The translations under genes and the position numbers were made by a program. Below the pieces are notes generated by a model. The model saw only the letters and a list, made by a program, of their open reading frames with translations. It was not told the origin of the DNA and searched no databases. Below, one piece after another: positions 2,799-54,957 of a stretch of DNA of 64,000 nt. This stretch comes from a virus, in IMG/VR virus record IMGVR_UViG_3300036780_000171, positions 1 to 64,000 of that record. One strand, 5' to 3'. Numbering within the stretch: the stretch's first letter is position 1; the number at the start of each line of letters is the position of its first letter.

Positions 2799-3788
2799 TT
2801 ATGCTGCGCAAGCTTTTTGGTAGGCTTTAGAAGCTTGTTCTGGCGTGTCATACGTGCCTAGGTGCTTCTTTTTACCATCAACTTTTGTAAATGCGGTGAA
2901 GCGGCCGTTACGTTGGGTGCCGACACCGCGTAGACCAACCTTGCTGCTATGGCCGGTATATCGTACACCAATTCGGTCTTTATTGCTTTTGATTTTCATA
3001 AGTTTTACACATTCGGGGCTGCAATATTTTTGGCCGTAGCAGCCGGGTTTGGCTTCCCAGGTATTGATACAATCGGGGCGTTGGCAGGTCAGAGTACGTT
3101 TATCATGTTTAGCAGTGGCATTAGCTGCACATGCTCTGCTGCAGTATTGCTGGTGATGCCTGCCGCCAATTGGAATTTCCCAGATTTTACCGCAATATAG
3201 GCACGCATGGGTTGGACGGGGCTGGTTTTTACGGGCTTTATTATAAGCAATTGCTGCTGCAGGATTATGGGGAGTAAGCTTTAAATCAATATCGGTCTTT
3301 TTCCTGTGACATTTCTTACATAATGTCTGCCCACAAGCGATATTCCATAGTTCTATACTTGCCAGTGCCTTCTCTATCGAGTTAATCTTGTTATTTTCAA
3401 GTATCTTATAGAACATGACTGGATAATGGTCAGCATGTAGGTATACACCACGCTCACCACAATCTTTATTCTGGCACGTATAGTCATCTCGTTCGAATAC
3501 TGCTTTACGCCAAGCTTTATATTCCGGCAATCGCCGTATCTTTTCTGCCAATTTTGATACACCGCCTTTCCAGTTTGGATTATTAGCTCCCATTATTCTA
3601 GTATCGCGTTTCTTGAAAGCATTAGCTGGTTTATAGCCTTTTCTATATGTATTGCCTTTAGAGTGACAAGAATGTGAGCAAAACTTTTGCTTTAGCTGAC
3701 TCTTATATATGTTGGTAACTAAATTGTTACACCCATTTCTCGCACATTTTCTTTTCCATAGATTATTTTCGAAGTAAGTTATTTCCAT
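2799..3788 (-). CDS. HNH endonuclease with Zn-finger repeats and C-terminal AP2 domain
   Basis: NPNWKGG, VFERDDYTCQ...HADH...TLCKKCH; KKKHLGTYDTPEQASKAY AP2 motif. Confidence 0.85.
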   Translation of the reverse strand: MEITYFENNLWKRKCARNGCNNLVTNIYKSQLKQKFCSHSCHSKGNTYRKGYKPANAFKKRDTRIMGANNPNWKGGVSKLAEKIRRLPEYKAWRKAVFERDDYTCQNKDCGERGVYLHADHYPVMFYKILENNKINSIEKALASIELWNIACGQTLCKKCHRKKTDIDLKLTPHNPAAAIAYNKARKNQPRPTHACLYCGKIWEIPIGGRHHQQYCSRACAANATAKHDKRTLTCQRPDCINTWEAKPGCYGQKYCSPECVKLMKIKSNKDRIGVRYTGHSSKVGLRGVGTQRNGRFTAFTKVDGKKKHLGTYDTPEQASKAYQKACAA

Positions 3789-22156: not shown

Positions 22157-22214
22157 TGCTTTCCTGGTTCTAAAGTTTATAATACCAGTTTAAGCTATTT
22201 ATAACCAAAATACT

Positions 22215-22724
22215 CTAGTTATTGAGTAGTGGTGCAAAGTATTTTTTTTCAGCAATCCTACGAGCATTAATTGCAGCTTGTTTTTCAATGTAGTAACCAA
22301 GTGTTATTTGTTTACCGTTTAGTCCTATTCTAACACGCCATCTTCGTTGGCTTTGAACCCAGTACACACCTTTTGTACCAGATTTATTATTGTTTTGGAT
22401 TCTTCTATTAATTTGTTGAACTGTTCGACTTACCCATCGGCAGTTAAAAAGCCAACTATGTGTTTTACATTCACTACACTTTCCACAAGTATAATTATCA
22501 TTATTATTTTTTCGGTCAAGGGTATAGTTACTAGGTCGTTCACCCATATCTTCTGTAAAGTTATCTAAGCCGTTATTTTCTCGCCATCTTTCACAAACTT
22601 TAATACCCCGACCACCATAATCTTTATATCTCTTATGCTTTGTATTATAACAACGCTGAAGCATGTCTTGATATATCTGTCCTAAGGGGTTTTTCGGTAT
22701 ATGAGTACGCCTATGATAATTCAT
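22215..22724 (-). CDS. HNH-AP2 endonuclease
   Basis: RCY...YGGRGIKVCERW, TLDR, NCRW; AP2 C-terminus. Confidence 0.85.
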   Translation of the reverse strand: MNYHRRTHIPKNPLGQIYQDMLQRCYNTKHKRYKDYGGRGIKVCERWRENNGLDNFTEDMGERPSNYTLDRKNNNDNYTCGKCSECKTHSWLFNCRWVSRTVQQINRRIQNNNKSGTKGVYWVQSQRRWRVRIGLNGKQITLGYYIEKQAAINARRIAEKKYFAPLLNN

Positions 22725-22743
22725 AATCTATATTATAGCATAC

Positions 22744-22899
22744 TTACCATATTTTTTCAATTTTAGCGCATAAATAGCCTACTATTAGTATAGCAGCGGT
22801 AAATAAGGCCATACCAATATTAGAAAATATTGCTATGAGAAAACAAATAATAAATACGAAGATGCCATACCATCTGGAAATTGCAACGCGTTTATTCAT
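22744..22899 (-). CDS. Small membrane protein (51 aa)
   Basis: Hand-translated, two hydrophobic segments, GAGG RBS. Confidence 0.4.
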   Translation of the reverse strand: MNKRVAISRWYGIFVFIICFLIAIFSNIGMALFTAAILIVGYLCAKIEKIW

Positions 22900-22905
22900 G
22901 GTACC

Positions 22906-23046
22906 TCAATTTAAAAGTAAGGCATGGCTATATCGAGCCTGGTTAATAGCTTGATTTATTGAATCATTTATATACAAGCAACACATGACTACAGTTAAAA
23001 TAACACATATAGCTATGACCGGTAAGCTGAAAAGAACATTTTTCAT
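22906..23046 (-). CDS. Small membrane protein (46 aa)
   Basis: Hand-translated, hydrophobic N-terminus. Confidence 0.35.
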   Translation of the reverse strand: MKNVLFSLPVIAICVILTVVMCCLYINDSINQAINQARYSHALLLN

Positions 23047-23100
23047 AATTAAGCTCTTATCATTAGTATAAATTCGTAACAGATATAAAACAAGAAAATA

Positions 23101-23129
23101 TTGATAATTTTACACTCGTGCTATATAAT
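23101..23129 (+). promoter_or_regulatory. Promoter of tRNA array 1
   Basis: TTGATA-17-TATAAT; ATG 6 nt downstream. Confidence 0.8.
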
Positions 23130-23135
23130 AAAAAT

Positions 23136-23198
23136 ATGGCTAAACTAAACGTATTATCAAGTTCGTTTTATCTCTTGGAAACTCCAGAGGTCTATTAG
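23136..23198 (+). CDS. Attenuator leader peptide 1, MAKLNVLSSSFYLLETPEVY
   Basis: Leaderless 20-codon ORF; codons 7-14 TTA TCA AGT TCG TTT TAT CTC TTG match array amino acids; contains the antiterminator strand. Confidence 0.8.
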   Translation: MAKLNVLSSSFYLLETPEVY

Positions 23199-23255
23199 CC
23201 ATATGCTAACTTGGTACGAGAATAAAACCTCTGGAATTTAACCAGAGGTTTTTTT
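23183..23255 (+). terminator. Attenuator 1 antiterminator/terminator
   Basis: Terminator AAAACCTCTGG (23224-34)/CCAGAGGTTTT (23242-52) plus T run; TCCAGAGGT (23183-91) competes for ACCTCTGGA (23227-35). Confidence 0.85.
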
Positions 23256-23264
23256 AATACCTAA

Positions 23265-23339
23265 TGCCTTGTAGCTCAACAGTAGAGCATCGGCCCGAAG
23301 AACCGAGTGTAGTGGGGGCAGCACCCACCGAGGCAACCA
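23265..23339 (+). tRNA. tRNA-Phe(GAA), atypical
   Basis: Cloverleaf with CCA end; loop CC-GAA-GA; T loop GGCAGCA. Confidence 0.75.
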
Positions 23340-23342
23340 TAA

Positions 23343-23430
23343 TCGGGAGCGGCGAAGATGGCGAGTCGCAGCAGTCTGTAAAACTGTTGTCCTTGTGGCT
23401 AAATAGGTTCGAATCCTATCTCCCGAACCA
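23343..23430 (+). tRNA. tRNA-Tyr(GTA)
   Basis: GCAGT-CT-GTA-AA-ACTGT, long V arm, TTCGAAT, CCA. Confidence 0.9.
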
Positions 23431-23431
23431 T

Positions 23432-23509
23432 GCTCATGTGGCGCAACTGGTAGACGCAAACGGCTCAAACCCGTTCCAACTACAGGTTCGAATCCTGTCA
23501 TGAGTACCA
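23432..23509 (+). tRNA. tRNA-Leu(CAA), short variable arm
   Basis: AACGG-CT-CAA-AC-CCGTT, TTCGAAT, CCA. Confidence 0.9.
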
Positions 23510-23510
23510 A

Positions 23511-23587
23511 GCCCCGGTGACGGAACTGGCATACGTACTTGGCTTAGAACCAAGGTTTTAGGGGTTCGACTCCCCTCTGGGGTACCA
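23511..23587 (+). tRNA. tRNA-Leu(TAG), short variable arm
   Basis: CTTGG-CT-TAG-AA-CCAAG, TTCGACT, CCA. Confidence 0.9.
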
Positions 23588-23593
23588 ATTTAT

Positions 23594-23677
23594 GCGTCGT
23601 TGGCGGAACAGGTATACGCAGTCGGCTTAAACCCGATGCCGCAAGGTTTACTGGTTCGAATCCAGTACGGCGTACCA
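23594..23677 (+). tRNA. tRNA-Leu(TAA)
   Basis: GTCGG-CT-TAA-AC-CCGAT, long V arm, TTCGAAT, CCA. Confidence 0.9.
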
Positions 23678-23683
23678 AAATAT

Positions 23684-23771
23684 GGAGGGTCGCAAGGCTG
23701 GCGTGCTTATCGGTTTTGAAAACCGTGATGGGGTAAAACCTGTGGGGAATCGTTCTCTCCACCCTCCGCCA
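23684..23771 (+). tRNA. tRNA-Ser(TGA), atypical T loop
   Basis: GGAGGGT/ACCCTCC-G-CCA; TT-TGA-AA loop; long V arm; T loop ATCGTTC. Confidence 0.8.
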
Positions 23772-23797
23772 AGTACCATCTGAAAACTGGAAATTAG

Positions 23798-23883
23798 GGT
23801 GAGTGAACTGGTTGGGAATCAGCTTTGTTTGCTAAACAAATGGCACCGCAAGGTGTGAGTGTCGGGAACTCCGCTCACCGCCA
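23798..23883 (+). tRNA. tRNA-Ser(GCT), degenerate T arm
   Basis: GGTGAGT/GCTCACC-G-CCA; TTTGT-TT-GCT-AA-ACAAA; long V arm. Confidence 0.7.
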
Positions 23884-23898
23884 TGTTATAATCAGAAT

Positions 23899-24036
23899 AT
23901 GTTGGAATTTATAATTTTAATTCTAGTCTTGCTTTGGGTTGGCGGCTTATTGGCAAATGTTGGCGGCTTAATAAATCTGTTGCTCATAGTTATTCTGGTC
24001 TTAGTGATTGTTAAGCTTGCACAGCGTGCCAGATAG
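23899..24036 (+). CDS. lmo0937/DUF5670-like small membrane protein (45 aa)
   Basis: MLEFIILILVLLWVGGLLANVGGLINLLLIVILVLVIVKLAQRAR; TGT-TATAAT 6 nt upstream. Confidence 0.7.
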   Translation: MLEFIILILVLLWVGGLLANVGGLINLLLIVILVLVIVKLAQRAR

Positions 24037-24049
24037 CTTATAATCAAAA

Positions 24050-24171
24050 GTGCAACTACTCTTAGTTGCAGGGTGAGTCATGGGGTGGCCTTTTGAAAAA
24101 ACCACTTGCGTTGAACTGAAACGAGCTTTTATCGACCGGGGCTTGGTAGCAGGAAGCAAGTGGTTTTTTCA
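24050..24171 (+). ncRNA. Candidate structured small RNA
   Basis: TTGCAC-16-TATAAT upstream; 8-bp hairpin 24051-70; 16-bp inverted repeat 24094-109/24156-171. Confidence 0.35.
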
Positions 24172-24179
24172 TGGCAAAG

Positions 24180-24210
24180 AAAAAAGGCCAGATTTTCGCT
24201 GGCCTTTTTT
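24180..24210. terminator. Bidirectional terminator between the convergent tRNA arrays
   Basis: AAAAAAGGCCAG...CTGGCCTTTTTT. Confidence 0.85.
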
Positions 24211-24229
24211 ACTCACATATAAGATTCTC

Positions 24230-24305
24230 TGGTTGCGGGAACACGAGAGTTGAACTCGCTTAAGAAGCCTTATGAGAGCTTCGAGATACCGACCTGCCGC
24301 CCGCA
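24230..24305 (-). tRNA. tRNA-CAT (Ile2 or Met), atypical
   Basis: GAAGCT-CT-CAT-AA-GGCTTC; TTCAACT; CCA; reduced D arm. Confidence 0.65.
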
Positions 24306-24322
24306 TTATTAATTATATCATA

Positions 24323-24397
24323 TGGTTCAGGTGCTTGGATTCGAACCAAGATTGCGTGAGTCAAAGTCACGAGTCCTACCTATTAGACGACTCCTGA
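24323..24397 (-). tRNA. tRNA-Gln(TTG)
   Basis: CGTGA-CT-TTG-AC-TCACG; TTCGAAT; CCA. Confidence 0.88.
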
Positions 24398-24398
24398 T

Positions 24399-24475
24399 TG
24401 GTTGGCGAGGTTGGATTCGAACCAACGAATTACCAAGTTCAGAGCTTGGAGCCTTACCAGCTTGGCCACTCGCCA
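24399..24475 (-). tRNA. tRNA-Gln(CTG)
   Basis: CCAAG-CT-CTG-AA-CTTGG; TTCGAAT; CCA. Confidence 0.88.
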
Positions 24476-24547
24476 TGGTACACCTAGTCGGATTTGAACC
24501 GAACATCAAGGCTTAGAACACCTTTTCACCTGTCCTGGGCTGGGTGC
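24476..24547 (-). tRNA. tRNA-Arg(TCT), degenerate
   Basis: AAGGT-GT-TCT-AA-GCCTT; TTCAAAT; CCA; weak D arm and acceptor mismatch. Confidence 0.6.
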
Positions 24548-24548
24548 T

Positions 24549-24623
24549 TGGAGGGCTAGGAGAATTTCGAAATCTCGACTGCCGCATTAAGAGTGCGGTT
24601 CTCTGCCTCTGAGTTACTAGCCC
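24549..24623 (-). tRNA. tRNA-Lys(CTT)
   Basis: GGGCTAG/CTAGCCC; CCGCA-CT-CTT-AA-TGCGG; CCA. Confidence 0.85.
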
Positions 24624-25029
24624 GTTTTCTGCGCCCAGTACGCCAGCGATATTTATTCTGACTATCTGCCGAAGCTCTCTTACAAGCATTACATCGACAG
24701 CCATATTTATATCCTGTATATGTACCATGGATTAAATGTCGTTTTCTTCTTCCAGCTAACCTACCTTTACGAGAAGCATCTTGCATATTGTCAGCGCGTG
24801 TACCAAGAAATAAATGGCTAGGGTTTACGCATATCTTATTGTCACATTTATGGCATACATCAATTCCTTTGGGTATATCCCCGTTAGAAATAATCCATGA
24901 AACACGATGTGTGTCAATAACTTTTTTGCCGACTTTAAAACAGCCATAGCCATTTTTAGTACGTCTTGCGGCCATCCATAGCCAGCAATTGCTAGATTTA
25001 TCGACTTTAAGCCAAAAACGCTTCTCCAT
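24556..25029 (-). CDS. HNH homing endonuclease inserted in tRNA array 2
   Basis: [37 protein letters not shown]; reads into tRNA-Lys. Confidence 0.9.
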
Positions 25030-25037
25030 TGGTCGTC

Positions 25038-25066
25038 ATTATAGCACGAACCTTTTTAATGTACAA
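25038..25066 (-). promoter_or_regulatory. Internal promoter of the HNH gene
   Basis: TTGTAC-17-TATAAT with TG extension. Confidence 0.7.
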
Positions 25067-25069
25067 TAT

Positions 25070-25145
25070 TGGTCAGGGTTGCAGGCTTTGCTCCCGCCGC
25101 CTCTGAGTCCCAAACCCAGCGCTCTACTAAATGAGCTAAACCCTG
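25070..25145 (-). tRNA. tRNA-Pro(TGG), atypical T loop
   Basis: CTGGG-TT-TGG-GA-CTCAG; T loop AGCAAAG; CCA. Confidence 0.8.
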
Positions 25146-25148
25146 ATA

Positions 25149-25219
25149 TGGCACCGGTGTAAGGGTTCGAACCTCATCTCGCAGTTTTGGAGGCTGCTAC
25201 GCTCCTAAGCGTCACCGAT
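25149..25219 (-). tRNA. tRNA-Trp(CCA)
   Basis: GCAGC-CT-CCA-AA-ACTGC; TTCGAAC; CCA; short D arm. Confidence 0.78.
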
Positions 25220-25222
25220 ACG

Positions 25223-25292
25223 AAAAAACCGCCCTTGTGTAGGCGGTTTCCTTTGCTATGTTAAGAATTCTGACTATGCTAAGAAACCACCC
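25223..25292 (-). terminator. Attenuator 2 antiterminator/terminator
   Basis: Terminator AAACCGCCT/GGGCGGTTT plus T run; GGGTGGTTTCTT (25292-81, in leader ORF) pairs with AGGAAACCGCCT. Confidence 0.82.
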
Positions 25293-25348
25293 GTGCTAAT
25301 CGGATTATCGTGCTTCCACACGCGGACTGGTTTACATATGTTAGCCAT
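25274..25348 (-). CDS. Attenuator leader peptide 2, MANICKPVRVWKHDNPISTGGFLA
   Basis: Leaderless 24-codon ORF; same TATAATAAAAATATGGCTAA start context as leader 1. Confidence 0.75.
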   Translation of the reverse strand: MANICKPVRVWKHDNPISTGGFLA

Positions 25349-25354
25349 ATTTTT

Positions 25355-25383
25355 ATTATATGGTAGTGAATAAAAAAAATCAA
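25355..25383 (-). promoter_or_regulatory. Promoter of tRNA array 2
   Basis: TTGATT-17-TATAAT. Confidence 0.8.
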
Positions 25384-25386
25384 GTC

Positions 25387-26793
25387 CTACATAAATACCA
25401 CATCATTTGCCGTTACTGCTACAGTGTTACTAAATGTCATTGAAGCGGCATCGGCTATGTCAGGACTAGCAATACCACGTTTGCCAAGCTCTTCCTTTGG
25501 CTCAATTTTCACTCGGCTGGCGCTATCCGGCTTATAGTTAATTAAGCTAATCTGATAAAATTCTTCGGTTTTAACAATTTTGCCGCCGCCCTTTACCCAC
25601 TGGCCAAGTAACCAGTATGCTTCCGCGCGCAAGTTAGCATAGCTGTCTTTTTCGTATGCTGTAGTTCCGCCTTTGAATGTATTGACTACTATATTTCGTT
25701 CGGCCAAACGGTTGCCCACGCCATGACCCACGCCGCTATCGTCAACCGTAACGTCTGTGCTGGTTATCTCGTATTCTTTCATATAGCCTTCAATCCGGCC
25801 GACTTGTGCCATTAAATCAGGGTCACGGTTCTTTTCTAGCAAGCGCATATAATTGTCGTAACGCAGCACAAACGTGGTGTAGTTACTTCCACCGGCCGCG
25901 ATGTCAACACCTAAGCGCGGCCGACCCACGGGGCGCGGTATTTGTAGCTCGGCATCTTCGTATGCTCTCTCAAGGTCACTATCCGTAACCAGCTTCCGCC
26001 AGCCCTGCTCATTAACTTCATCTTCTTCGGGGAATTGGCAAGCATAGAGAATATCGAAAAAGGCTTCATTTCGCATTTCCTCGATAAAGGCTTCGCTATA
26101 GCGATTTTCTCTAAGTGCCTGCACATAGTCGATAAAAATACGGAAATAGCGGCCATTGTTCCATGTCCGGTGGAAGTGATTGCGATAAAATGGGTTGCCA
26201 ATTTTGAGCAAGAAGCTATCTTGCTGACCACCAAGCATACGCATAACCATGCTCTGTAGGTCATCTGGAATCAGCGCTGACTCGTCTTCTATAATATTTG
26301 GGCTACCAAAGCCAGTTAATGACTCTTTCACGCGTTGGCGGTTGCGAGAGTCGGCTGTAAAGGTACGTATGCCGCCGCCGCCTTTCCAAGTCACCTGTCG
26401 CTTATTTCTGGTACGACGCAATTTATCTAGCGGTTCGTTCGGGTCAAGCTCAAGCTGGCTATAGAATTGTTCATGGTCGAATGAGTGCTGTATCACCTTT
26501 TCCATAATAATCTGCGACTTTGGTTCTGACCCCGTCACAATAGCAAACTGCTCATGAAAGGCTTGGCTACGCACGATTAAAGCCATCGCCACCGTTGAGC
26601 TTTTACCATACTGTGTGCTGGCAATAACCTGCACCCGTTGGTGGTCTTTTATAAATATGACATTAAAAATATCTGCCTGGCCGTCTGTTAATTCAAACGG
26701 TAAGCCTTTATCATCTCTAAAATAGCGTCTAACTATTTGCTTCGCTATTTCCCGATTCTGCTGTCTCGCTTGGCTCGTCGTCGGCATTTTCAA
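25387..26793 (-). CDS. Terminase large subunit
   Basis: Walker A STQYGKS, IIEDE, IGNP, GVDIA, VDDSGVG, SPDIADA. Confidence 0.92.
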   Translation of the reverse strand: MKMPTTSQARQQNREIAKQIVRRYFRDDKGLPFELTDGQADIFNVIFIKDHQRVQVIASTQYGKSSTVAMALIVRSQAFHEQFAIVTGSEPKSQIIMEKVIQHSFDHEQFYSQLELDPNEPLDKLRRTRNKRQVTWKGGGGIRTFTADSRNRQRVKESLTGFGSPNIIEDESALIPDDLQSMVMRMLGGQQDSFLLKIGNPFYRNHFHRTWNNGRYFRIFIDYVQALRENRYSEAFIEEMRNEAFFDILYACQFPEEDEVNEQGWRKLVTDSDLERAYEDAELQIPRPVGRPRLGVDIAAGGSNYTTFVLRYDNYMRLLEKNRDPDLMAQVGRIEGYMKEYEITSTDVTVDDSGVGHGVGNRLAERNIVVNTFKGGTTAYEKDSYANLRAEAYWLLGQWVKGGGKIVKTEEFYQISLINYKPDSASRVKIEPKEELGKRGIASPDIADAASMTFSNTVAVTANDVVFM

Positions 26794-53950: not shown

Positions 53951-54410
53951 AGGTATTTATACTAGAACAAAGCAAGCTCGTATGAATATGAGCCAAGTAC
54001 AACGTGGTCGCATACCTTGGAACAAAGGAAAGAAAATTACCAAAACACTTGGTAAAAATAATGGTAACTGGAAAGGAGATAGCGTTGGATATCAAGGTGT
54101 ACATGGTTGGATTCGGCGTACGCTTGGTACACCAGAACTGTGCGAAAATTGTGGCACTAACCGAAAAACAAGATACGAATGGGCTAACCTAAGTGGTGAC
54201 TATAAGCGCGATATATCTGACTGGGCAAGACTATGTGTAGTTTGTCATAGATTAATAGATGGTAATTATACTTGGAATAATAGAAAGTTGTTTGATAGAA
54301 ACTGTCTAAATTGTACTACAGCTTTTCGACCATCTAGTGCTATCCGTAAATTTTGCTCGCAATCTTGTGCTGGTAAATATAGTTGGGCTATTAGAAAGGG
54401 CACAACTTGA
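53943..54410 (+). CDS. HNH endonuclease (NUMOD3-like)
   Basis: PWNKG, NWKGD..GY..VHGW...WANLSG.Y.R...W.RLC..CH. Confidence 0.8.
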   Translation: MPKGIYTRTKQARMNMSQVQRGRIPWNKGKKITKTLGKNNGNWKGDSVGYQGVHGWIRRTLGTPELCENCGTNRKTRYEWANLSGDYKRDISDWARLCVVCHRLIDGNYTWNNRKLFDRNCLNCTTAFRPSSAIRKFCSQSCAGKYSWAIRKGTT

Positions 54411-54957
54411 TTTTATTATCACGGTTGTGTATAATAAGAGCATGAAAAGTAAAACTATGGAAAAAGTCTTATGGTATTTATAGGCTTTATCTATCTACTT
54501 CTCGGTTTTATATTCGGTGCATTTGTCGGCATAATGGCGATGACTGTTTATGGCGATACCATTATCAATGACGAGGTCAAAGAAATTCGCGGACAGCGAA
54601 TAGAAACCGCTAAACTACACTTTGAAACCAAGGTTTTTAAGAAGCTAATAAAAGAAAACCGCATTATAATGCTGCCCAAAGGCTTGACAAAGCGCCAGTT
54701 CTACTTGCTTAGATTAATTGCTCATTCAATATCAAAAATTGATAACGAAATTGCCCAGGTGATAAAAGAGGTCGAGAAATGAGAATCTTTATACTTCGCA
54801 TGATTTGTGATGCAATGGAATGGCTGATGGTTAGATACATGCGATTGGCGGTATGTATCTACTCACCAGTAATACAATATAACGAAAGGAGTAAACTTTA
54901 AACTGGTGCTGTAGAGGCAGATTAATTTTACCATAAAGTAATAAGGAAGAAAATACA

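Follow-up and report, generated by a model that had tools for sequence, protein, structure and literature searches.

A candidate trp-type attenuator with a leaderless reading frame ahead of a phage tRNA array, and a leader whose codons match that array at chance level

The window analyzed here is the first 64 kb (64,000 nucleotides, nt) of an 83,461-bp virus record of IMG/VR (IMGVR_UViG_3300036780_000171), which was assembled from a soil metagenome and carries direct terminal repeats. Two convergent arrays of transfer RNA (tRNA) genes are encoded in this window, each preceded by a short cassette that begins with a promoter and a leaderless open reading frame (ORF). The cassette examined here, termed cassette 2 or attenuator 2, lies on the minus strand ahead of array 2, while its counterpart on the plus strand (cassette 1 or attenuator 1) precedes array 1. 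On balance, the layout of its sequence leads us to favor a functional, ribosome-dependent transcription attenuator of the trp type. The codons of its leader ORF (leader 2), on the other hand, correspond to the tRNAs of array 2 no more often than expected by chance.

The elements that a preliminary description had read from this sequence, namely the TTGATT-17-TATAAT promoter, the leaderless ORF with its listed codons and the terminator just before tRNA-Trp, are all present at the minus-strand coordinates collected in Table 1. The spacer between the -10 box and the ATG is 6 nt long (AAAAAT), and the expected +1 coincides with the A of the ATG. In RNA numbering from this A, segment 1 (AAACCAGUCCG) occupies nt 16-26 and is followed by a small hairpin with a GNRA loop (nt 27-40), segment 2 (CGGGUGGUUUCUU, nt 56-68), the stop codon (nt 73-75), segment 3 (AAGGAAACCGCCU, nt 96-108), segment 4 (GGGCGGUUUUUU, nt 115-126) and the first tRNA at nt 130. 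The strong intrinsic terminator (25253-25223) forms a 12-bp stem in the minimum free energy (MFE) fold, with a CCGCC/GGCGG core and a run of six U residues that ends at 25223, 3 nt upstream of the Trp-like tRNA. The promoter/terminator scan lists this hairpin on the plus strand only, although RNAfold shows it plainly and the terminator is bidirectional; we think that the minus-strand form was missed because base pairing with the upstream A tract engages the U tract and leaves no free tail. The UGG codon of leader 2 begins at the last base of the stem and extends two bases into the loop of the GNRA hairpin, which may play a role of its own, for example in pausing.

Segment 2, which lies within codons 19-23, pairs with the 5' arm of the terminator, as had been proposed. 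When the upstream region was dinucleotide-shuffled 2000 times, no version reached the stability of the resulting 2:3 antiterminator (12 bp, -17.9 kcal/mol). Among the natural 90-nt windows of the genome, 7 of 3706 (0.19%) reached this energy, and about four of these, judged by position and uninspected, should hold the real segment 2/segment 4. The pairing between segments 1 and 2 was absent from the preliminary description, and it completes a four-segment, trp-type attenuator. By its predicted pairings (1:2, 2:3 and 3:4), cassette 2 is of the trp-leader topology. The 1:2 pairing is also predicted in the MFE structure of the full-length RNA, in which segment 1 would sequester segment 2 when the ORF is not translated. 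In MFE folds of the nascent transcript, the 1:2 pairing prevailed at lengths of 75-100 nt and gave way to the 2:3 antiterminator at 105-115 nt (-27.3 kcal/mol); from 120 nt onward, 1:2 occurred together with the 3:4 terminator (-36 kcal/mol). The fold of the whole leader has a z-score of -2.8. In a crude model of the ribosome footprint, in which -15 to +14 nt around the A-site codon were masked, the 2:3 pairing was intact with the A site at codons 1-15, weakened at codons 16-17 and abolished from codon 18 to the stop. The sensing window would therefore extend over approximately codons 2-15.

In a working cassette, transcription by host RNA polymerase would begin at, or immediately beside, the A of the ATG, and a 70S ribosome would load on the leaderless 5' AUG. 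A ribosome that reached the TAG would cover segment 2; the 3:4 terminator would then form, and an RNA of ~125 nt would be released before tRNA-Trp. If the ribosome were slowed while its A site lay anywhere within codons 2-15, segment 1 would be masked and segment 2 left free, such that segment 2 could pair with segment 3 before segment 4 was made, and the polymerase would read through into the tRNA genes. Without translation, the 1:2 and 3:4 pairings would form and transcription would stop. Since untranslated RNA is expected to adopt this state, late transcripts that arrive from the terminase genes would end at cassette 2 as well.

In both leaders the 5' AUG region is itself paired with the region of the stop codon. 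In leader 2 the two stretches (25342-25347 and 25271-25276, minus strand) form 6 bp, and in leader 1 the stretches AUAUGGCUAA (23134-23143) and UUAGCCAUAU (23195-23204), on the plus strand, form 10 bp. The start codon is predicted to be sequestered in this manner after transcription of the full leader, and the switch could thereby be confined to one pioneer ribosome.

An exact 20-mer (23124-23143 in attenuator 1), made up of the -10 box, the spacer and the opening 8 nt of the ORF (ATGGCTAA), recurs in both cassettes. The -35 core is common to them as well, a GGTyTnTTAGC(C)ATA stretch is conserved at the stop codon, and in both the first tRNA is located at nt 130 from the ATG. Owing to the common 20-mer, the equal distance from ATG to tRNA and the conserved stop-codon region, attenuator 2 is a diverged paralog of attenuator 1. 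The stem segments of the two cassettes (CCAGAGGT/ACCTCTGG/CCAGAGGT in leader 1, whose segments are also written CCAGAGGU/ACCUCUGG, versus GGGTGGTTT/AAACCGCC/GGGCGGTTT in leader 2) have no sequence in common, yet all three pairings are kept in each, and the 2:3 duplex of leader 1 is likewise significant (-13.7 kcal/mol, P=0.0005). The folds, the shuffles and the genome windows thus uphold the earlier suggestion that unlike stems with the same logic far exceed chance. Because three interacting segments appear to have been replaced in concert after duplication, we argue that the antiterminator, beyond the terminator alone, has been under selection. This concerted replacement is the best available stand-in for covariation, with the two paralogous cassettes in one genome serving as an internal control.

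Translation of the leader 2 ORF is plausible in view of other start sites in this phage. At least nine of its long ORFs start 6-7 nt after a -10 box that is accompanied by a good -35, often TTGATT. Five of these leaderless-type ORFs were checked against Pfam; four gave matches that begin close to the N-terminus (Rad52/22, the ArdC N-domain and two HNH proteins), and the fifth, of 116 amino acids, had no Pfam match. From these ORFs, leaderless initiation would seem to be routine for the phage and its host, and such heavy use of leaderless mRNAs is informative about that host. The codon content of leader 1 is hardly explicable unless its ORF is read. Against a null model built from the phage's own codon usage (91 long ORFs), 9 of 19 codons of leader 1 are matched to array 1 over the whole ORF (P=0.0055), and all seven tRNAs are covered (7/7; P=0.002 for the whole ORF and P=0.00015 for codons 3-14). 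This match implies that cassettes of this type are translated and sensed in the phage.

The tRNA genes of array 2 differ considerably in their support, which is solid for Pro, Lys and the two Gln genes only. The Trp(CCA)-like gene, the first past the terminator, scores 26.5 bits with Rfam, where the cut-off is 29, and is found by ARAGORN only at a relaxed threshold (-ps95). In the two arrays together, at least 5 of the 14 tRNA-like genes (Trp-like, Arg-like, CAT and a Ser pair) are non-canonical, low-scoring or missed by standard models, and the Phe tRNA passes Rfam (39.2 bits) but is missed by ARAGORN. The tRNA with anticodon CAT could be Met or Ile2. Among the relatives searched, none was informative as to its identity, and the share of ATA among the Ile codons of the phage (30%) is only suggestive of Ile2. 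No tRNA genes were found outside the two arrays in the phage genome.

Several observations weigh against a working switch at cassette 2, and many of them concern the leader codons, which the preliminary description took to reflect array 2. That claim did not hold: 5 of the 23 codons (ATA, CCA, TGG, AAG and CCG) are readable by array-2 tRNAs, where 3.5 are expected (P=0.27), or 4 of 23 if the CAT tRNA is taken as Met (P=0.46). Similarly, four of the seven array-2 tRNAs have at least one cognate codon in the whole ORF (P=0.34). The partial match that had been described stands insofar as the Trp, Pro, Lys and ATA codons are indeed readable; it is no better than chance, and two of the five matches depend on the weakly supported Trp and CAT tRNAs. 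The presence of one TGG and one CCN within 14 codons is not unusual either (estimated P ~0.09 from phage codon frequencies). Leader 2 is devoid of Gln codons despite the two Gln tRNAs, which are the best-scoring of array 2, and its Arg codon is CGC, as opposed to the anticodon UCU of the Arg-like element. The enrichment of regulatory codons in the sensing window that is expected of an attenuator was not found in leader 2. Narrower windows gave lower values: 5 of 14 codons match within codons 3-16, the post hoc choice of the preliminary description (P=0.05), and four of the seven tRNAs have a cognate codon within codons 3-15 (P=0.09). Its remark that no codon recurs within codons 3-16 (P=0.125 by chance) and that Leu, Ser, Phe and Tyr, which are all four isotypes of array 1, are avoided there (P=0.03) proved correct, although both values are post hoc and suggestive.

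Further points against the switch concern the RNA and the array itself. According to the folding models, the terminator always wins at equilibrium in leader 2 RNA, and switching would thus have to rest on kinetics. Moreover, ribosome-free RNA thermodynamically prefers the 2:3 pairing at 105-115 nt, such that the untranslated "off" state would rely on kinetic trapping of 1:2. Within array 2, the gene for an HNH homing endonuclease possesses its own promoter-like site, a bypass that was absent from the preliminary description. No terminator follows this gene, and its reading frame continues across the whole of tRNA-Lys (24623-24549) before its stop. The Lys, Arg-like, Gln, Gln and CAT genes would consequently be transcribable without the attenuator, and most of array 2 (five of the seven tRNAs) may escape control. 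Only the Trp-like and Pro genes would then be strictly gated. Finally, the comparison with orthologous arrays that had been proposed earlier yielded none in any of the collections searched.

On the whole, we lean towards the switch. Leader 2 is best understood as sensing how fast the ribosome moves across 14 mixed codons, for 11 amino acids, and not as an array-specific leader. A response to generic slowdown is the most economical account of its codons. A broader proposal would make leader 2 a generic sensor of "decoding health", whereby the cleavage or depletion of any host tRNA would fire the tRNA block. Anticodon nucleases in anti-phage defense usually target the Lys, Arg, Asn, His and Asp tRNAs. 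If the proposal were true, leaders 1 and 2 together would cover most of the genetic code and form a sense-and-replace circuit of counter-defense; we consider it rather improbable.

The mismatch between leader and array could also be historical. Leader 2 would then be a codon-specific sampler whose codons formerly corresponded to more tRNA genes (Asn, Ile, Cys, Lys, Pro, Val, Arg, Trp, His and Asp), of which five (Asn, Cys, Val, His and Asp, as the preliminary description suggested) were lost, perhaps with the insertion of the HNH gene, while the Gln genes were gained. Leaders of this class normally do spell their arrays, as seen for leader 1 and for block A of phage phi17:2 (see below), and of the 17 codons ahead of segment 2 (codons 2-18), 8 specify amino acids of array isotypes if the CAT tRNA is Ile2 (P=0.07). 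The avoidance of all four array 1 isotypes in the sensing window is in keeping with such a history, as are the presence of a homing endonuclease within the array and the insertion of the whole module between the TerL and portal genes relative to the closest relative. However, the match is significant neither by codon nor by tRNA coverage, and the argument requires two weakly supported tRNAs as well as the Ile2 identity of the CAT tRNA. In addition, no remnants of tRNAs are present; the HNH gene with its promoter-like site takes up the space between the Pro and Lys genes. The genome has no tRNAs elsewhere, and no relative was found that shows the ancestral state. We therefore regard this scenario as unlikely.

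Alternatively, cassette 2 might not be a switch at all. Its hairpin would then do no more than end transcription of the TerS-TerL operon, with the promoter and ORF being a decaying duplicate of cassette 1, and the tRNAs would arise from leaky read-through and from transcription at the HNH promoter. The position of a bidirectional terminator ~165 nt past the TerL stop would fit such an arrangement, as would the apparent randomness of the leader codons relative to array 2, the internal promoter of the array and the marginal character of Trp, the first gated gene. Decay, however, would not be expected to keep a 12-bp antiterminator that no shuffle reached, nor would it keep the 1:2 pairing, an open 24-codon frame that ends 4 nt past segment 2, a promoter with 10 of 12 consensus matches and the spacing of cassette 1. 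Because the stems differ wholly from those of cassette 1 and the three pairings are nevertheless kept, selection after the duplication seems to be required, and we hold a mere terminator to be doubtful. In a further scenario, the product would be the ~125-nt terminated RNA or the 24-residue peptide, acting as a small RNA or micropeptide, and the position before the tRNAs would be incidental. The well-folded leader is compatible with this notion, and attenuator-derived RNAs and leader peptides of Sinorhizobium can act in trans, as reported in PMC6614838 and PMC7298713. Duplication of the same architecture before both tRNA arrays points instead to control in cis, and the leader matched no Rfam family; we deem the scenario very improbable.

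Should the cassettes work as proposed, phages would be able to gauge ribosome speed and to produce tRNAs on demand, which bears on the question of why phages carry tRNAs, i.e., for codon supplementation or for the replacement of tRNAs destroyed by host defenses. Leader 2, with its intact architecture and chance-level codon match, is a counter-example that any general claim that leaders spell their arrays must accommodate. It implies either that specificity is inessential to the design or that arrays turn over faster than leaders.

Leader-peptide attenuation is the textbook control of amino-acid operons, whereas full-text literature searches revealed no published description of such attenuation for tRNA genes. 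Cassette 2 resembles trpL, pheL, hisL and leuL of Escherichia coli/Salmonella and the multivalent thrL and ilvL in its promoter-proximal short ORF and in its four segments with 1:2, 2:3 and 3:4 pairings and a U tract. As in those leaders, the stop codon lets a terminating ribosome mask segment 2, and the terminator outweighs the antiterminator, such that the choice is kinetic. In contrast to the classical leaders, the genes under control are phage tRNA genes rather than biosynthetic enzymes, the mRNA is leaderless and lacks a Shine-Dalgarno sequence, and leader 2 has neither a run of regulatory codons nor a significant enrichment in cognate codons. In Rfam searches over 25222-25350, no match to the Trp, Phe, His, Leu or Thr leader families or to the T-box was obtained at E<=1, while leader 1 gave a sub-threshold match to Phe_leader (32.4 bits, E=0.0098).

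For a leader without cognate-codon enrichment, the best functional analogy may be found in the slow-translation attenuators of Bacillus subtilis, bmrB-bmrCD (PMC4191407) and the vmlR leader (PMC9226507). Both are reported to have a short leader ORF and to control antibiotic-resistance transporters or ABCF proteins in response to ribosome-targeting drugs, with slow translation, rather than the lack of a single amino acid, flipping the terminator/antiterminator choice; the output of leader 2 would instead be phage tRNAs. T-boxes similarly make a terminator/antiterminator decision that reports tRNA status, but they recognize uncharged tRNA by direct binding and without an ORF, and the genes under their control are those for aminoacyl-tRNA synthetases or amino-acid metabolism. 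A T-box reading of cassette 2 was dropped, there being no Rfam match even at E<=1. A TnaC-like arrest peptide was also considered, owing to the length of leader 2 (24 amino acids) and its W..D..P residues. TnaC is of the same length but has a different spacing of these residues, and a stall at the stop would favor termination in leader 2; the idea was abandoned.

A codon-matched leader before a tRNA block exists in a cultured phage. Cellulophaga phage phi17:2 (NC_021798) carries 23 tRNAs at 87.6-91.1 kb, and its block A (Pro(TGG), Glu(TTC), Gln(TTG), His(GTG), Leu(TAG), Leu(TAA) and Arg(ACG)) is preceded by an unannotated leader ORF, MKIQRLHLQELEQPIISGGTGV with its stop codon, and then a terminator. 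This block shares with cassette 2 the promoter, the leaderless short ORF, a G-rich segment 2 near the stop, the terminator and the tRNA block. All 11 consecutive sensing codons of its leader (QRLHLQELEQP) are read by the seven tRNAs of the block (11/11). Leader 1 covers all of its array, whereas leader 2 remains at the chance level described above and lacks Gln; leader 2 is thus an outlier among such leaders. In block A RNA a helix likewise closes the 5' AUG, joining 519-526 with ~589-602 (numbered within NC_021798 87000-91400), a stretch just past the stop. A second phi17:2 leader (gp077) contains mostly the isotypes of the next block, with few exceptions. The annotated 33-residue gp078 (3384-3485 of NC_021798 87000-91400) precedes a block of Ser, Asn, Trp and Phe tRNAs, which it matches in part (N, W, N, W, F and S among its 33 residues), and no obvious terminator follows it. 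It is either an imperfect codon-matched leader or a wrong ORF call.

Relatives of the region were sought in several collections. Comparison with 50,697 phage records (megablast and blastn) gave only scattered single-tRNA similarities of ~80%. No tRNAs were present at the loci of TerL relatives in IMG/VR (7 loci, the best with 67% amino-acid identity) or in JGI metagenomes (15 loci), nor were any found when the surrounding records of three TerL relatives and of one HNH relative were inspected, and a search with TerL among GTDB genome contigs found nothing. The loci of HNH relatives had no credible tRNA nearby, the sole call at a relaxed threshold being an unlikely tRNA-Ile(AAT) in one of them (L023). 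The exact 20-mer TATAATAAAAATATGGCTAA matched ten times in IMG/VR, in no case with tRNAs in the fetched locus; the one match that was inspected is an ordinary leaderless gene start. An unrelated record (G005) reached through the 20-mer scan carries four ordinary tRNAs. A pattern search for the 3' part of the Gln tRNA had no match, and a gapped start-stop-helix pattern had three, all of them in ordinary genes. No RNA run was listed among the sequencing runs that carry the phage sequence. The sole other sequencing run with TerL sequence contained pieces of 151 nt that were identical to TerL, and there were hence no variants to compare.

On the minus strand, the order is TerS, TerL, cassette 2 and array 2, followed by a terminator (24210-24180) that is shared with array 1. 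Past this terminator lie the convergent plus-strand array 1 with its own cassette, an AP2/HNH-like gene and the portal gene. TerL appears to be a very divergent terminase: its identity to the terminase of any cultured phage is at most ~25%, the level at which distant terminases were seen by tblastn, and no Pfam match was obtained at E<=0.01. In its closest relative (67% amino-acid identity; locus L013, 3880-3940), the portal gene directly follows TerL. Here, by contrast, a 3.2-kb module (22200-25400) lies between the two genes and includes both tRNA arrays, two endonuclease genes of the HNH/AP2 type, a DUF5670 mini-membrane protein and small ORFs. Since TerL directly abuts the portal gene in this relative, the whole module would represent either an insertion or a lineage-specific retention.

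Table 1. Coordinates of cassette 2, array 2 and associated features (positions in the window unless stated otherwise)
Feature	Coordinates	Strand	Basis and remarks
Sigma-70-type promoter, TTGATT-17-TATAAT	25355-25383	-	10/12 consensus matches; directly after the TerL stop codon
Leaderless leader ORF, 24 codons plus TAG, MANICKPVRVWKHDNPISTGGFLA	25274-25348	-	ATG at 25348
Segment 1, AAACCAGTCCG (codons 6-9)	25323-25333	-	Predicted to pair with segment 2 in untranslated RNA (anti-antiterminator); MFE folds
Small hairpin CGUGU-GGAA-GCACG, GNRA loop (codons 9-14)	25309-25322	-	MFE fold
Segment 2, CGGGTGGTTTCTT (codons 19-23)	25281-25293	-	Pairs alternatively with segment 1 or 3; ends 4 nt 5' of the stop codon
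Segment 3, AAGGAAACCGCCT	25241-25253	-	5' arm of terminator and 3' arm of antiterminator
Segment 4, GGGCGGTTTTTT, with U tract	25223-25234	-	3' arm of terminator; 3 nt 5' of the first tRNA
tRNA-Trp(CCA)-like, non-canonical, 4-nt D loop	25149-25219	-	First gene past the terminator; cloverleaf in MFE fold
tRNA-Pro(TGG)	25070-25145	-	ARAGORN; Rfam 49 bits
Putative promoter TGTACA-16-TATAAT, TG extended -10	25038-25065	-	10/12 matches; 8 nt before the HNH ATG
HNH homing-endonuclease gene inside array 2	24556-25029	-	Pfam HNH_3, E=4.9e-13; near-leaderless start
tRNA-Lys(CTT)	24549-24623	-	ARAGORN; Rfam 48 bits
tRNA-like element, anticodon loop GUUCUAA (UCU, Arg), degenerate D arm	24476-24548	-	Rfam 13.4 bits, E=1.9; fold; missed by ARAGORN
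tRNA-Gln(CTG) and tRNA-Gln(TTG)	24323-24475	-	ARAGORN; Rfam 60.8 and 57.1 bits
tRNA with anticodon CAT, Met or Ile2, non-canonical	24234-24304	-	ARAGORN only; missed by the Rfam tRNA model
Bidirectional terminator AAAAAAGGCCAG-7-CTGGCCTTTTTT	24180-24210	.	Closes both convergent arrays; from sequence
TerS	27172-26729	-	Pfam-based gene order
TerL	26793-25387	-	Upstream of cassette 2
Non-canonical or partly missed tRNA-like genes	23265-23336, 23684-23883, 24234-24304, 24476-24548, 25149-25219
Leaderless-type starts	18149, 22724, 39661, 40187, 45039, 47738, 51592; genome positions 66364, 80778		TTGATT-like -35 and TATAAT -10 (TATAAT/TATACT family)

A third candidate cassette, at 54408-54484 on the plus strand, was rejected. 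It comprises TTGATT-17-TATAAT and a leaderless ORF of 13 codons (MKSKTMEKVLWYL with its stop codon) and overlaps the ATG of the next gene, with no terminator. This ORF, at 54442, looks like an upstream ORF for translational coupling to the downstream membrane-protein gene, which is in another frame, and not like an attenuator.

Two further features occur at the junction of the arrays. At the end of array 1, a DUF5670 membrane peptide of 45 amino acids (23899-24036, plus strand) is encoded 3' of the tRNAs and 5' of the terminators, and would be expected on the same transcript as the tRNAs. Between the arrays (24095-24170) lies a second long hairpin, GAAAAAACCACTTGC ... GCAAGTGGTTTTTTC with a loop of ~45 nt, which adjoins the shared bidirectional terminator.

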